Below, piece after piece: positions 5,974 through 10,958 of a DNA stretch of 64,000 nt (position 1 is its first letter; each line of letters starts with the position of its first letter). Location of the stretch: positions 44,728-108,727 of the forward strand of contig JBBRVO010000001.1 of assembly GCA_038246775.1 (NCBI GenBank), in the 5' to 3' direction. Source of the DNA: Peptostreptococcales bacterium (lineage in GTDB: Bacteria; Bacillota; Clostridia; Peptostreptococcales; Acidaminobacteraceae). The translations under genes were made by a program, and so were the position numbers. The notes beneath the pieces were generated by a model. That model did no database searches. It had not been told where the DNA came from and saw only the letters and a list, made by a program, of their open reading frames with translations.

Positions 5974-6028
5974 GGGTGTCATGACAAATCTAAATTTTAT
6001 TTTGATTTGTCATGACACCTTCTTTTTT
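5974..6028 (+). terminator. Intrinsic terminator
   Basis: Long stem ggtgtcatgacaaatc / gatttgtcatgacacc followed by a T-rich run. Confidence 0.85.
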
Positions 6029-6176
6029 TATGATTAATACCCATTTGAACCTCTAATATAAGAATCTGATTAGAAAGGTGTAAGAAAATATTAGGTTAAT
6101 ACTAAACAAACCTATGTAGTTACAAACCTCAAATTTGCTTATAGTGTATGTAGAAGTAAAAATATGAGGTGATGAT

Positions 6177-7166
6177 ATGCTTAGTTTTAAGCCTAGGCAA
6201 TTAAACGAAGAAGGCATCGTAGAAAAACTGAAAGAAGTCTATGCGCTATGCGATGCTGAGGATTTTAAAACAAAAAAATTTGTCGGCTTGATCAATGATT
6301 ATATACCTTATCAATCCGGACTTAAAATCAGATTGGAATGGATGGGCAAACAAGGGTATATTGAACAGCTAGAGAAGCTAAAAAAAGAAAATAGCCCTTC
6401 ACTTAAAATAGAAAAAATGGCGTTACAGTTTGCTAAAGAGTACGGTTTTGTCGCAGAAGACAGCTACAAAACATTTGCGATGATGGCACGAGCGATGTCG
6501 TTAAAAACGGCACTCCCACAAAATGCCACATTGAAAATTGTTTCTTCAGTTCAAAGTGCTCAAGGTAATTTCTCGAAAAAGCATATCCAAACAGAAGAAA
6601 CATCAAGACTGAACATCATACAAGTAGGAGAGGTTGGCGCTGGTACAAGTCTGCCGAAAGTCAAACGTAGATTTGTTAGAAACAAGACCAGTCTGTGGCT
6701 TTATATTTTTTATCTGCTCATGATACCAGTTGGCTATTACACGCTTTATGAGAATTTTGGCTTGGTAAACCAGGTTTTTAAAAGTGTGACAGATACGATT
6801 AGAGTGCCGATTTACTCGGACCCTTGGTTTATCGGTGTAATGATCGCAATGAGCGTTGCGACACTATTGCCAGTGTTAGGAAAATGGGCATTTAAATTAA
6901 ATGTCATTAGTCTATATCCATTGCTTATGTTGCTGGCTCAAGTGGTGCTTGTTTCTATTGAAGCGAAATTTCCACTGTTTGTGATGGGCTTTCAACTGGC
7001 AATAGGACTCGGCATGATGGTGTCCTTTGCAATACTTGCTTTCTATGCTATGAGGTTGCCAAAAGGTGCAAAAGAATACCTCGCCTATCAAGCCATTATA
7101 CCGTATTATCTATCGGCAATCATTTGGTTTTCAGGACAATATATTGTATTTGCTAGGGTAATCTAA
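6177..7166 (+). CDS. Uncharacterised membrane protein (soluble helical N-terminal domain, linker, about 4-5 C-terminal TM helices); first gene of the kinase-vWA-PP2C operon
   Basis: 329-aa ORF with a GAGGTG RBS and hydrophobic segments from about residue 170 to the end. No family recognised. Confidence 0.75.
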   Translation: MLSFKPRQLNEEGIVEKLKEVYALCDAEDFKTKKFVGLINDYIPYQSGLKIRLEWMGKQGYIEQLEKLKKENSPSLKIEKMALQFAKEYGFVAEDSYKTFAMMARAMSLKTALPQNATLKIVSSVQSAQGNFSKKHIQTEETSRLNIIQVGEVGAGTSLPKVKRRFVRNKTSLWLYIFYLLMIPVGYYTLYENFGLVNQVFKSVTDTIRVPIYSDPWFIGVMIAMSVATLLPVLGKWAFKLNVISLYPLLMLLAQVVLVSIEAKFPLFVMGFQLAIGLGMMVSFAILAFYAMRLPKGAKEYLAYQAIIPYYLSAIIWFSGQYIVFARVI

Positions 7167-7195
7167 ACAGCCACAACATGAGAATGGAGGTTAAA

Positions 7196-8536
7196 ATGTC
7201 AGATCAATTAAACAATGGCGCATTTGTTTCTTCTGGACAAAGGCGATTTCGCGTACTAAAGGAAATCGGCGGCGGCGGGCAAGGTAACGTGTACCTTGTA
7301 TCTGAAGACGCCGAGCAATATGCACTTAAATGGTATAATAGAACATCATCAACCGCTGAGCAATACGCGGCCATAGAGATTTTAGTTGAGAAAGGTGCAC
7401 CAAGCGACAAATTTATTTGGCCACTGGCTATAGTAGAAGGAGAATCAAAGGACAATTTCGGCTATATTATGCCGCTTATTGATACAAAACGTTTTACAAA
7501 ATTGGCGCACTATTTTGGCGGTGAGTTAAAAGTCAAGCGCTTTGAACCGCTTATCGATGCATGCATACGCATGGCACATGGTTTCAACGAACTACATCTC
7601 AGCGGCCTTTGTTATAGAGATATCTCTTTTGGGAACTTGTTTGTGGATTTTGAATCGGGTGACATACTCATTTGCGACAACGACAACGTCACCTTTGACA
7701 ATTTGACCAAAACGGAAGATATTTGGGGTACGCACGGATTCATGGCGCCAGAAGTCGTCAAAGGTGAAAAACCACCAAGCTCTCAAACCGATCTATTCTC
7801 ACTGGCAGTCGTTCTGTTTAGAATGCTACACTTGCAACATCCGCTGCAAGGTAAAAGAGAGTATGAAATTGAGATTGCAGATTTGGAAGCTTTGACAGAT
7901 CTATATGGACATAATCCAGTATTTATCTATGACCCAATAGACGCAACCAATCGTCCGGTTAAAGGCAAAAAAGATATGGCAGATGCCTATTGGCCGTATT
8001 ATCCAGAATTTTTAAAAAATAAGTTTATTGATGCATTCACACACGGGTTACAAGATCCTAACCAACGCATCAGAGAGAGTATTTGGATAAAAACATTTGC
8101 AGATCTGAGGGCTTCGCTCATGTACTGCTATCATTGCGGCGAGCAACTCTTCTATGACAAAACTAAAATGGGGCGTTTAGATCCTTGTCCAAAGTGTGGC
8201 AAAGCCATTGACACATTGCCACCGAGGCTGAAAATTGCCGAGAGAATCCTCATGCTCAGTCACGATGTGACACTCTATGTGAACCAGATTGATGAAGCGT
8301 GTCCAATGGACTATGAAACCCCTTATGCGAAGGTTGAAATTCATCCGAGACACCCTGAAATCTGGGGGCTGAAAAACCTCTCAGAAGACAGTTGGCGATA
8401 TGAAACAAAAGATGGAGAATTGAAAGAAGTATTCAAAGGCGGCGTGATCCCCATCAAAGACAACCAAGAAGTGTTTTTGGGCAATGCCATAGGGACCATG
8501 AGAATTGGAACAAAAATCACCCAAAAGAAAAAATAG
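7196..8536 (+). CDS. Atypical Hanks-type Ser/Thr protein kinase with Zn-ribbon and C-terminal beta-rich (FHA-like) domain; TerY-P triad kinase
   Basis: Gly loop IGGGGQGNVY, Lys in YALKWY, catalytic loop YRDISFGN, DND in place of DFG, APE, DLFSL, and CYHC...CPKC. Start at ATG 7196 after GGAGG; the ORF track starts at 7178. Confidence 0.88.
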   Translation: MSDQLNNGAFVSSGQRRFRVLKEIGGGGQGNVYLVSEDAEQYALKWYNRTSSTAEQYAAIEILVEKGAPSDKFIWPLAIVEGESKDNFGYIMPLIDTKRFTKLAHYFGGELKVKRFEPLIDACIRMAHGFNELHLSGLCYRDISFGNLFVDFESGDILICDNDNVTFDNLTKTEDIWGTHGFMAPEVVKGEKPPSSQTDLFSLAVVLFRMLHLQHPLQGKREYEIEIADLEALTDLYGHNPVFIYDPIDATNRPVKGKKDMADAYWPYYPEFLKNKFIDAFTHGLQDPNQRIRESIWIKTFADLRASLMYCYHCGEQLFYDKTKMGRLDPCPKCGKAIDTLPPRLKIAERILMLSHDVTLYVNQIDEACPMDYETPYAKVEIHPRHPEIWGLKNLSEDSWRYETKDGELKEVFKGGVIPIKDNQEVFLGNAIGTMRIGTKITQKKK

Positions 8537-8545
8537 GAGGTCAAC

Positions 8546-9223
8546 ATGACTATAGAAAGAGACGGAAAAATGGGCAACAGAGATTTACATTTGTTTTTTT
8601 TAATCGACGCTTCGGATTCTATGAGCTACGGTGGTAAAGTTGAAACGCTTAACAATGCCATTCGCGAGGCGATTCCGCATATTAGAGAAATTGCTCGGGA
8701 AGCGGAAGGTTCAATCAAAGTGCATGCCCTTTCATTTTCCACAGGCGCAAGATGGATTGTAAATAATGTGGATGTAAGGGATTTTACCTGGGACAATATT
8801 ACAACCAAAGGCGTTACGGACATGGGACGTGGCTTTGAACTATTAGCTGAAAAACTCAGTTCCGATTTTCAAGGTGAAAGAGGCTATCAACCTGTCATGA
8901 TCTTGTTGTCAGATGGACTACCAACCGACGACTATGAGTCAGGTCTCAAAAAACTCAAAGCGACGAAATGGGGCAGCAAGGCAATTCGCATTTCCATTGC
9001 CATCGGTTCCGAAACGGATATGGATGTGCTACAAGCCTTCATAGGAGACAGTTTTAGAGGGGAACTCAAACCACTTAAAGCCAAGAATGCGTCGGAACTT
9101 AAAAACTATATCAGATGGGCTTCAACGGCGGCTTCAAACGCCTCAATCAATCCAATGAGAGGGATGTTGCCGCCACCACCGACTGTGGATGCAGAGGTTG
9201 ATGTTGAGGCTATTGACTGGTAA
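8546..9223 (+). CDS. TerY-like von Willebrand factor A domain protein
   Basis: MIDAS motif LIDASDSM (DxSxS), T in GVTDMG, ILLSDGLPTD, and a Pro-rich tail. GGAGG RBS. Sits between a kinase and a PP2C. Confidence 0.88.
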   Translation: MTIERDGKMGNRDLHLFFLIDASDSMSYGGKVETLNNAIREAIPHIREIAREAEGSIKVHALSFSTGARWIVNNVDVRDFTWDNITTKGVTDMGRGFELLAEKLSSDFQGERGYQPVMILLSDGLPTDDYESGLKKLKATKWGSKAIRISIAIGSETDMDVLQAFIGDSFRGELKPLKAKNASELKNYIRWASTAASNASINPMRGMLPPPPTVDAEVDVEAIDW

Positions 9224-10776
9224 TGCAAACGCTATGGCCTATATCAGGCGCTTCTATCATAGGCAGCGCACATATTAGAAAAGGGTCGCCCAATCAAGAT
9301 GCATACGGCTTTAAGAACCTAAGTGGCGGCATCCAGGTTCTTGCTTTAAGCGATGGTCATGGTGGTGAAAGGCACTTATACAGCGATCTTGGATCTAAGG
9401 CGGCCATAGAGGCGGCCATAGAAAGCGTCCAAGACTATGCATTAAATACGGTTGCCAATCAATTGCCTTATAATGAGGCAAAGTTGCAATTCGATTTTGA
9501 GGGTCATGTATCCAAGGACATTCAAGTGCGCTGGCTTCAAAAGATTCAATCATCACCTGCTTTTGAGGACGCCATGCAGTTTGGCTGCACGCTACTCCTG
9601 TGTGTGAAATTCGATAAAGTCATTGTCTTCTTGCAACTCGGAGATGGGAAAATCGCCGTCGTGTATACGAATGGCGTCATCTACTATCCAATTCCCCGTG
9701 ATATGCGTTATGAAAACAATGAAACGGCATCCTTGGCTCAAACGCTGGCTTGGGCCGAGATGAAGGTCGTCACACTATCAAATGAAGGGGATATCCATGC
9801 AATCTTTCTCGCTTCTGATGGGGTTGAAAATGCCTATCCAGAGGACTATTACGACGATGCGTACTTCTACATGAAATTGGCTTTGCCACACGAAACAAAC
9901 AACGTGACGCTGCCTAAGTTAGATGTTCAGTCCGAGGGTATTTTACATGAAATGCTCAACAAGGCATCGCAGTATTCAAAAGACGATACCACCGTTGTTA
10001 TGTGGCACAATCCAGAGAATACCATGCAAGAAACCACCGTTCCCGAATCTTTACAGATTTGGATGGGTGCTTACCCCAATTATTGGTTGCCTATTGCCTG
10101 CCATTTGGATAAGGCACTTAACAAACGTATTGACTACGCCCTATTACTCATAGAGGCCATTCAAAGAGATGAGGGGGTTGTCCCGCAGTATCTGTCTATA
10201 AAGCAAATTTATCTTGATGCGGATAGATCTCGCCTTGAAATCATAGCACCTGGAGACCGTGAACCCGTAGTTATTGAAACGCTTTATGCGTTGATCATGC
10301 AAATGCTCATGTTACCAGATACGCAAGAATTTTTAGAATTTGGCAAAACTTTAAAGTGCGATTGTTTAAGTTTAGAACCTATACCAGACACTTTGAGACA
10401 TATGAAAAGAAAGCTCATCGCTATGAAGCAAACGTTGAGATATGACTATTTGAGTCAGCAGTTTGTCTGCGATGGCAAACCGTCAGCAATAAGCATCACC
10501 GCATCAAACGGACATTTTGCGCTATTTTTTGACAGTGACATCTACTTACATCAATTGATGCCGCTTGTTGGGGATTATGACGGTCTCATCGGTCGTGTCA
10601 TCCAGCACGCAAAATATAAGAACATATGGGGCATGGTGAATCTCTCCGGACATGTTTGGCAGGTAGTCGGTGGCAAAAGACTGCGCATAGATCCAGGTAT
10701 GACGTTGACACTCATTGATGGAATTACCGTTTTCATCCATGGAATACCTGTAAAAATTAGAATAATAAACCAATGA
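9223..10776 (+). CDS. PP2C-family (YegK-like) protein phosphatase fused to a degenerate kinase-like C-terminal region
   Basis: GSAH...NQDAY, ALSDGHGG, GCTLL, QLGDG, FLASDGV and SKDDTTVV motifs in residues 1-263. The start overlaps the vWA stop (TAATG). Residues about 270-517 resemble the C-terminal half of the upstream kinase. Confidence 0.87.
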   Translation: MQTLWPISGASIIGSAHIRKGSPNQDAYGFKNLSGGIQVLALSDGHGGERHLYSDLGSKAAIEAAIESVQDYALNTVANQLPYNEAKLQFDFEGHVSKDIQVRWLQKIQSSPAFEDAMQFGCTLLLCVKFDKVIVFLQLGDGKIAVVYTNGVIYYPIPRDMRYENNETASLAQTLAWAEMKVVTLSNEGDIHAIFLASDGVENAYPEDYYDDAYFYMKLALPHETNNVTLPKLDVQSEGILHEMLNKASQYSKDDTTVVMWHNPENTMQETTVPESLQIWMGAYPNYWLPIACHLDKALNKRIDYALLLIEAIQRDEGVVPQYLSIKQIYLDADRSRLEIIAPGDREPVVIETLYALIMQMLMLPDTQEFLEFGKTLKCDCLSLEPIPDTLRHMKRKLIAMKQTLRYDYLSQQFVCDGKPSAISITASNGHFALFFDSDIYLHQLMPLVGDYDGLIGRVIQHAKYKNIWGMVNLSGHVWQVVGGKRLRIDPGMTLTLIDGITVFIHGIPVKIRIINQ

Positions 10777-10777
10777 A

Positions 10778-10820
10778 ATGCCATTTTATGGAATAAATCT
10801 ATGAAATGGCATGTTTTTTT
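10778..10820 (+). terminator. Intrinsic terminator closing the kinase-vWA-PP2C operon
   Basis: 12-bp stem atgccattttat / atgaaatggcat (one G-U pair) followed by gttttttt. Confidence 0.75.
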
Positions 10821-10958
10821 GTGTTTTTTTCAAAAAAAGGTGATTATTATTATTAGATAAAGGATATTTTGGTATATATATAAAAAGATTGACGACAATA
10901 TGATCATTCACATAATAGAAAATGGATATTACAACCAATTTGAAAGGAGTGACAAAGG

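Follow-up and report, generated by a model that had tools for sequence, protein, structure and literature searches.

The description of the TerY-P triad is said to go back to Anantharaman et al. in 2012. As set out in two accounts (PMC11090510, PMC4978471), such a triad comprises a vWA TerY-like protein, a PP2C phosphatase, and a Ser/Thr kinase with a C-terminal zinc ribbon; in Escherichia coli, where it takes the form yegL-yegK(pphC)-yegI, the phosphatase YegK/PphC is the product of a 762-bp gene that encodes a PP2C alone, and PphC dephosphorylates YegI. Fusions of PP2C to Pkinase, zinc-ribbon, or FHA domains have been listed among bacterial architectures (PMC12088040). The Deinococcus radiodurans phosphatase DRA0334, whose operon also encodes a vWA protein and a Ser/Thr kinase, joins a PP2C to a KI-FHA docking domain that sets substrate specificity (bioRxiv 10.64898/2026.01.23.701218), and plant KAPP, as far as it is cited in that preprint, is a KI-FHA-PP2C phosphatase that binds phosphorylated receptor kinases. 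In Sulfolobus acidocaldarius, the FHA reader ArnA binds the phosphorylated C-terminal region of the vWA protein ArnB (PMC6509490, PMC12852372). Here, we describe a phosphatase encoded in a 64,000-nucleotide stretch of DNA (hereafter, the window) from a Peptostreptococcales bacterium of the Acidaminobacteraceae (assembly GCA_038246775.1, contig JBBRVO010000001.1, positions 44,728 to 108,727 of the forward strand). Of its 517 residues, the first ~265 form a PP2C_2 catalytic domain (residues 1-265, window 9223..10017, forward strand, E 5e-30), and the extension under study—residues 270-517, window 10030-10776—is annotated by none of the libraries searched (Pfam, NCBIfam, PADLOC). We propose, with a probability of roughly 0.62, that a TerY-P-type kinase, from the family to which the kinase of the operon also belongs, contributed its C-terminal half to this PP2C, and that the resulting module acts as a docking device shared by the two enzymes.

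The phosphatase is the last of four co-oriented, almost abutting genes (window 6177-10776, forward strand), which encode a membrane protein, a Ser/Thr kinase, a vWA protein, and the PP2C. The Pfam domains VWA, PP2C_2, and Pkinase are found on adjacent genes of this set, and the kinase (452 residues, window 7178..8536, forward strand; Pkinase E 1.1e-22 over residues 25-242) ends, as in TerY-P systems, in a zinc ribbon, here followed by an FHA-like domain; the zinc ligands C317/C320/C337/C340 are invariant in 34 homologues, with a weak match to Pfam DZR. Judged by gene content and by this zinc ribbon, the operon is a TerY-P-type triad with two lineage-specific additions. Both enzymes look active from their conserved catalytic residues: K51, D148, N153, D167, and the APE motif of the kinase are invariant in the 34 homologues, and the phosphatase has the metal-binding Asp residues and the DGHGG and DG motifs of PP2C (PPM) enzymes (D26, D44-G48, D141, D199-G200, D254-D255), with D141, D199, D254, and D255 invariant and D26, D44, G45, H46, and G47 nearly invariant in 31 family members. 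In this kinase family, DND replaces DFG (residues 167-169, window 7676-7684) and YRD replaces HRD; D167 and D169 never vary among the same homologues, and N168 hardly does.

A preliminary description of the locus had aligned the last ~245 residues of the phosphatase by eye, block by block, with the C-terminal half of the kinase. Direct comparison by BLASTP yields one significant match (kinase 360-443 with PP2C 434-514, 27% identity, E 1e-4), which contains the block AKVEIHPRHPEIWGLKNLSEDSW / GRVIQHAKYKNIWGMVNLSGHVW; profiles of the two families, built from 10 phosphatases and 34 kinases drawn from a collection of 5.8 billion proteins, raise this block to an hhalign probability of 97.6% (E 3.8e-12). 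An exhaustive search of 1.84 billion representatives with a profile of the extension added ~20 PP2C proteins of 467-568 amino acids that carry the same extension, and with the family so widened, PP2C 392-514 matches kinase 301-443 at a probability of 99.7% (E 5.8e-27). The match spans the last kinase-domain helix (the DPxxR...alphaI region), the zinc ribbon, and the terminal domain, and it takes in the zinc-ribbon block LRASLMYCYHCG... / MKQTLRYDYLSQ...; the corresponding part of the kinase—alphaI helix, Cys4 zinc ribbon, and FHA-like domain (residues 301-446, window 8078..8515, forward strand)—is the module that it has in common with the phosphatase. There is thus strong evidence, at the level of sequence profiles, that these three elements are homologous between kinase and phosphatase, which bears out the view that a kinase of the partner's family supplied its C-terminal half as the extension. 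Since the secure homology takes in the final helix of the kinase domain as well, the transferred piece came from a kinase gene rather than from a stand-alone reader.

Within this region, the zinc ribbon of the window phosphatase is degenerate (residues 405-422, window 10435..10488, forward strand), as seen by alignment with Cys4-bearing relatives. Its first knuckle reads YDYLSQ against YCYHCG, with D408 and S411 in place of Cys, and the second knuckle is deleted, leaving neither of the two CxxC pairs; basal family members retain all four Cys. The loss, which the preliminary description had already noted for most of the ligands, is real and extends to all four, because distant fusion phosphatases (P0058-P0063, P0065, and loci L010-L014) have CxxC...CxxC precisely where the window protein has RYDYLSQQFVCDG.

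The terminal domain (residues 423-517, window 10489..10773, forward strand) is an FHA-like beta sandwich that shares with the kinase the motif QH[PA]K..[VI]WG..NLS...W. When an AlphaFold2 (AF2) model of the extension was compared with the PDB by Foldseek, this part matched the FHA domains of MDC1, Ki67, DgcB, GarA, Rv0020c, EmbR, and KIF1A, in agreement with the FHA-like assignment made earlier and with the eleven-stranded sandwich fold of FHA domains. For isolated FHA targets, the template modelling (TM) score normalised by target was 0.50-0.65, with a root-mean-square deviation of 3.7-5.3 Å and prob 0.96-1.0; for EmbR and KIF1A, which are larger multi-domain targets, it was 0.19-0.41, with prob 0.80-0.99. 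The same positions are best conserved in the terminal domains of kinase and phosphatase (H389/H462, W396/W469, G397/G470, N400/N473, and W406/W479, respectively), and the model places them in adjacent loops at the end of the sandwich at which FHA domains bind ligands. The SxxH and NG loops of FHA domains may have their counterpart in the loop motif QH[PA]K...WG..N-L-S.

Seen across proteins, the terminal domain looks like an unannotated domain family. It occurs in the window at 8213-8515 and 10489-10773 and in proteins P0068-P0094, with the motif [HN]P....[WL]G[LI].N[LQ][ST]...W and no Pfam family; in high-GC bacteria, membrane proteins carry it in tandem pairs (P0070-P0076, P0079, P0082, P0083), and it also ends other kinases. 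In the source genome, no proteins beyond the kinase and phosphatase of the cassette carry the module.

Upstream of the secure homology lies a linker (residues 278-404, window 10054..10434, forward strand) that is probably a remnant of a kinase C-lobe. The AF2 model, which covers residues 275-517 and was built from a 25-sequence alignment, has a predicted local distance difference test score (pLDDT) of 89.2 and a predicted TM score of 0.85, consistent with a single compact unit; an earlier full-length model from 10 sequences had a pLDDT of 48. In the newer model, the remnant begins with a short strand and a turn, continues with a 17-residue helix (299-315) and four short strands (319-321, 329-332, 337-340, and 346-348), and ends with three helices (351-362, 368-381, and 387-404), after which come two short strands at the former zinc ribbon and the beta sandwich at 423-514. 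In the hhalign register, helix 299-315 corresponds to kinase alphaE, the strands to beta6, beta7, and beta8, helix 351-362 to alphaF, and helix 387-404 to alphaI; the core topology of a C-lobe—alphaE, catalytic-loop strands, beta7-beta8 hairpin, alphaF, and alphaI—is present in the model.

Structural comparison points the same way. The 50 best Foldseek matches in the PDB are exclusively FHA domains or kinases and pseudokinases (E 6e-3 to 5e-2), and those of the kinase type, which include protein or lipid kinases and among them the atypical COQ8A, comprise RET, PIM1/2, PKC-theta, MET, S6K, PDK1, COQ8A, and EssB/YukC (4ano, 9qks_C). They extend over 131-186 alignment columns, the best with prob 0.97-1.0 and E 8e-3 to 5e-2; some 180 columns amount to ~125 residues plus gaps for a missing activation segment and alphaG. 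As the kinase-like part is N-terminal to the sandwich in the query, these matches do not arise from the sandwich being laid on a kinase N-lobe.

The linker also resembles the kinase in sequence profiles, in the collinear place. Its top profile-profile match pairs PP2C 286-344 with kinase 104-169 (P 0.002-0.007, probability 5-9%) and covers alphaD/alphaE, the catalytic loop, and the beta7-beta8 hairpin up to DND. The score of 24.1 compares with 8.3 and 8.7 for reversed profiles. It exceeds the best of 100 column shuffles (20.3) and the best of 100 shuffles in eight-column blocks (21.0), and it was reached by 2 of 100 shuffles in twenty-column blocks, which retain pieces of the real match. When five non-overlapping linker subfamilies were compared singly with the kinase profile, four gave a top match in register around kinase 104-169, and the fifth, the P0058 group from within the basal group, one that starts at the catalytic loop (kinase 147-209). 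One of the five, the long-linker subfamily, reaches further (kinase 106-222, P 0.0014, probability 17%), pairing ...LLAQLLYQIFYKSPP with TDLFSLAVVLFRMLHLQHP in alphaF across the deleted activation segment. With the shallow first alignments, hhalign had given the linker a probability of 0.2%, which rose only once the family was widened. Of the blocks aligned by eye in this part, HLSGLCYRDISFGNLFVDFESGDILIC / RDEGVVPQYLSIKQIYLDADRSRLEII is not significant pairwise and falls in the same register as the top profile-profile match, and DLFSLAVVLFRMLHL / ETLYALIMQMLML (BLASTP E 1.8, not significant) lies on the predicted helix 351-362 and is in register in the long-linker subfamily. All four blocks of the preliminary description lie where it had placed them along residues 270-517, and its collinear reading of the tail holds, with profile-profile support of 99.7% for residues 392-514 and of just 5-17% (P 0.0014-0.007) for the linker.

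As a kinase, the extension is dead. The catalytic residues D148, N153, and the DFG-type D167 align with Y323, Q328, and A342, which matches the earlier reading of Asp to Tyr, Asn to Gln, and a lost DND, and neither the HRD Asp, the catalytic Asn, nor the DFG Asp is retained, as expected of a dead remnant. Relative to the partner kinase, there are two large deletions, of ~29 residues (the activation segment) and ~53 residues (the alphaG region). The N-lobe—five-stranded sheet, Gly-rich loop, VAIK Lys, and alphaC Glu—is absent in both sequence and AF2 model, only ~12 residues separating the PP2C domain from the alphaD/alphaE-like region. The remnant is, then, a trimmed C-lobe core (alphaE, beta6-9, alphaF, one intervening helix, and alphaI) and not a whole pseudokinase; of the PP2C-pseudokinase fusion first put forward, the lifeless C-lobe stands and the complete kinase domain does not.

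To place the fusion in a wider context, we scanned one genome per species across 185,579 species. It was found in 15 other species genomes, making 16 with that of the window, all of them Bacillota (Fusibacter, Acidaminobacteraceae, and metagenome-assembled genomes, MAGs, labelled 'Clostridiales' or Clostridia). The same four genes occur in the same order in all 15 other loci, and one chromosome has the flanking genes in common as well. Five genomes outside this Bacillota group have the same kinase family—from Pseudomonadota, the cyanobacterium Prochloron, an unclassified MAG, Caldilineaceae of the Chloroflexota, and Desulfobacterales—with kinases of 440-445 residues that bear the zinc ribbon and the FHA-like domain. 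At four of these five loci, the kinase lies beside a vWA gene and a short PP2C (255-354 residues), three in the order vWA-PP2C-kinase, as in E. coli yegL-yegK-yegI, and Prochloron in the order kinase-vWA-PP2C; the Desulfobacterales locus is a short contig on which the kinase alone is seen. Because the same kinase family sits with a short PP2C outside the Bacillota group, we take the long phosphatase to be the derived state. We rejected the idea that it represents a standard YegK architecture, which would have undone the preliminary description, since E. coli YegK/PphC is a PP2C alone and the triads of other phyla have short PP2Cs. A candidate unfused intermediate at the Prochloron locus was likewise dropped when it proved to be a membrane vWA protein with an FHA-like domain. 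This protein of 597 residues (Prochloron didemni scaffold L018, 9730-11523) has a signal/transmembrane segment, a vWA domain with a metal ion-dependent adhesion site (MIDAS), several transmembrane helices, and the FHA-like domain at its C-terminus, and its gene lies 2.7 kb downstream of the kinase-vWA-short PP2C triad.

A phylogeny of the module groups all phosphatase copies in a single clade (SH-like approximate likelihood-ratio test, SH-aLRT, 99) at the end of a long branch, with the Cys4-bearing lineages at its base. This clade does not fall inside the Bacillota kinases, and the pattern indicates a single, old origin of the fusion. The tree does not show the duplication within the operon that had been suggested to account for it: the copies belong to one old clade rather than nesting among the partner kinases. 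Distribution and tree together indicate that the fusion arose once, early in a Bacillota lineage, along with the added membrane-protein gene, and it predates the spread of the cassette. Joining of the PP2C to a downstream kinase copy in an ancestor with the order vWA-PP2C-kinase would explain the collinearity.

Evolutionary rates differ widely along the cassette. Between the window proteins and those of nine other cassettes, identity is 82-97% for the vWA protein, 70-95% for the kinase domain, 45-83% for the kinase module, 32-68% for the PP2C domain, 30-63% for the FHA-like module of the phosphatase, and 3-49% for the C-lobe remnant, making the vWA gene the most conserved and the remnant the fastest-evolving part. 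A fast-diverging linker, together with lost catalytic residues and lost zinc ligands, is what one might expect of a decaying, functionless relic of a PP2C-kinase gene fusion. We regard this as extremely improbable, given that open frame, length, and predicted fold are kept in 43 of 43 distinct family members from at least 16 species, that the FHA-like part is conserved like the PP2C catalytic domain, and that its motif positions are nearly invariant. An assembly or frameshift artefact was rejected on the same grounds, the fusion being conserved in 43 distinct proteins.

Several results weigh against the derivation and role that we propose. With respect to the linker, no Foldseek match in the PDB reaches E <= 1e-3, and the hhalign probability against the kinase stays at 5-17%. 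The kinase hidden Markov model (HMM), run with filters off against all fusion proteins, gives no match; nor does Pfam Pkinase in the 31 family members, nor do PDB sequence searches with two profiles, and the linker has no significant hhalign match to any of four unrelated kinases from this genome. The sequence of the remnant is nearly free to evolve (3-49% identity), which would suit a spacer as well as a functional surface. For the terminal domain, Pfam FHA (PF00498 and relatives) has no match in whole proteins or in ten isolated terminal domains, even at E 10, and the position of the canonical GR Arg (R458) varies across the family; phosphothreonine binding is for these two reasons not established. 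Finally, the module tree, with its long branches, does not point to the operon's own kinase as the donor.

The low linker probabilities, the lack of HMM or Pfam kinase matches, and Foldseek E values of 6e-3 to 5e-2 would also fit a scenario in which the docking cassette alone moved (alphaI helix, zinc ribbon, and FHA-like domain) and the 125-residue linker is an unrelated alpha/beta structure whose likeness to a kinase is coincidental, all the more as the FHA-like domain, found in many other architectures, is evidently mobile. We consider this quite unlikely: every structural match other than FHA is a kinase or pseudokinase, the profile match sits at the collinear position, in the collinear register, and scores above all 200 fine shuffles, the linker subfamilies agree on that register (four of five around kinase 104-169, the fifth at 147-209), and the secure homology already reaches into the kinase domain.

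How might a module copied from a kinase serve a phosphatase? Under the shared-docking reading, the C-lobe remnant would be a structural platform that carries the FHA-like domain, and the module as a whole—remnant, zinc ribbon, and FHA-like domain—would be the docking device. Homologous readers on kinase and phosphatase would then recruit both enzymes to one partner, and their meeting there would yield a tight push-pull phosphorylation switch. A docking role is suggested by the positions H-P...WG..N-L-S...W, which are the most conserved in both copies of the module, and by the KI-FHA domain of DRA0334, which confers substrate docking (10.64898/2026.01.23.701218). Among possible partners, the highly conserved vWA protein, which ends in a Ser/Thr-rich tail, is the best candidate; the membrane protein or the kinase itself could serve instead. 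We consider vWA the likeliest ligand because it is the most conserved gene product of the cassette and ends in this conserved tail, because Prochloron fuses the same domain to a membrane vWA protein, and because the FHA protein ArnA binds ArnB, itself a vWA protein, at its phosphorylated C-terminus (PMC6509490). We favour common targeting over the decoy and heterodimer roles that had also been considered. A more specific version, in which writer and eraser of one phospho-switch share a duplicated substrate-engaging half (C-lobe platform, zinc ribbon, and FHA-like reader) and either compete or alternate on the vWA tail, or have the phosphatase pair with the kinase C-lobe as a pseudokinase partner, strikes us as doubtful.

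In the main rival reading, the module would mainly pair with the active kinase, by pseudokinase-type allostery or in the manner of KAPP, the phosphatase holding the kinase off until a signal arrives; the dead C-lobe, the FHA-like domain, or both would bind the C-lobe of the kinase or its phosphorylated sites. Precedents exist in E. coli PphC/YegK, which dephosphorylates its operon kinase YegI, in the KI-FHA domain of DRA0334, which modulates kinases directly, in KAPP to the extent described above, and in the YukC pseudokinase, which touches the FHA domains of YukB in the Bacillus subtilis type VIIb secretion core complex (PMC12637312). The remnant is, however, the least conserved part of the phosphatase, which one would not expect of a surface that dimerises specifically with a kinase conserved at 70-95%. 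It also lacks alphaG and the activation segment, common interaction surfaces of kinases. On balance, we judge a mainly kinase-directed role unlikely and continue to prefer shared docking on a common partner.

Turning to the remaining features of the locus, the vWA protein (225 residues, window 8546..9223, forward strand; VWA E 8e-8) has a MIDAS motif and ends in the conserved Ser/Thr-rich tail, which cassette comparison gives as WASTAASNASINP..GMLPPPPT...E.DW (residues ~205-225, window 9160-9220); this tail is a candidate phospho-acceptor and docking site. The membrane protein that opens the cassette (329 residues, window 6177..7166, forward strand) consists of a soluble N-terminal part, which has no detectable relatives, and four to five transmembrane helices, and it has no family match in Pfam, NCBIfam, or PADLOC. 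Its gene is in every Bacillota cassette and in none of the five loci outside the Bacillota group, suggesting that it arrived in the lineage with the phosphatase extension. A promoter-like site lies upstream of the operon (window 6007..6034, forward strand; TTGTCA-16-TATGAT, 10 of 12 consensus matches, identified by consensus match alone), and a strong intrinsic terminator with a 15-bp stem and a T run ends it (window 10778..10822, forward strand, or 10778-10812 by a narrower delimitation). The neighbours—a secreted glycosidase-like protein, MarR, an M29 peptidase, POR, and HtpG—make up a housekeeping context that is syntenic across genera. No Ter genes, restriction or DNA-processing genes, or defence island lie beside the cassette, for which PADLOC gives generic kinase matches alone, and PADLOC and NCBIfam have no specific family for the vWA protein or the PP2C. 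Elsewhere in the source genome, outside the window (contig C19, 8489-11207), an ordinary kinase (690 residues) is paired with a short PP2C (235 residues); the cassette is thus a second, distinct Ser/Thr system.

Most bacterial PP2Cs consist of a catalytic domain alone and are regarded as promiscuous, and, to our knowledge, how bacterial Ser/Thr kinase/phosphatase pairs reach the same substrate specificity is largely unknown. In this operon, evolution appears to have copied the non-catalytic half of a kinase onto a phosphatase, which offers a clean, testable model of specificity. If the more specific, doubtful version described above were true, the phosphatase would be in effect a kinase with its catalytic head swapped, and the shared half would be a built-in means of matching the substrate specificity of the two enzymes and of making the response switch-like. 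In that case, the FHA-like domain would be a new reader family, invisible to Pfam, that also occurs in tandem in membrane proteins and fused to membrane vWA proteins; in any case, the locus brings to light an FHA-like domain family that is linked to vWA proteins and lacks annotation. The cassette would further be a rare case of a half-kinase remnant retained as a scaffold, and it suggests that TerY-P-type triads can become domesticated, vertically inherited chromosomal signalling cassettes.

Compared with described systems, the operon is most like TerY-P, including E. coli yegL-yegK(pphC)-yegI, in having the three core genes in one operon and a Cys4 zinc ribbon at the C-terminus of the kinase. 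It differs in that the PP2C is double the usual length and bears a kinase-derived module, in that a fourth gene, for the membrane protein, heads the operon and the order is kinase-vWA-PP2C, and in its place among housekeeping genes rather than in a Ter, restriction, or defence island. With KAPP and DRA0334, the phosphatase has in common the fusion of a PP2C to a divergent FHA-type docking domain; their reader is N-terminal, database-recognised as FHA, and without a kinase-lobe remnant or zinc ribbon, whereas here it is C-terminal, unseen by Pfam, and homologous to the C-terminus of the partner kinase. ArnA-ArnB resembles the cassette in that an FHA-domain reader works with a vWA protein, the phosphorylation-dependent complex being that of ArnA-ArnB. 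In contrast to ArnA, a free-standing protein with a canonical FHA domain, the zinc-ribbon and FHA-like unit here lies within both kinase and phosphatase, and there is no free reader gene. EssB/YukC of type VIIb secretion (4ano, 9qks; PMC12637312), among the best structural matches to the linker, likewise uses a dead kinase fold as a scaffold that contacts FHA domains; EssB, however, has a complete two-lobed pseudokinase domain in a membrane protein of a secretion machine, and lacks both a PP2C and sequence similarity. In the literature, we found no description of this FHA-like family, nor of a PP2C that is extended by a half-kinase remnant and a decayed zinc ribbon and ends in an FHA-like domain homologous to the C-terminus of its partner kinase. 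PP2Cs with kinase-like, zinc-ribbon, or FHA domains are known in general (PMC12088040 and the DRA0334 preprint); what is new here is the particular arrangement and its origin.

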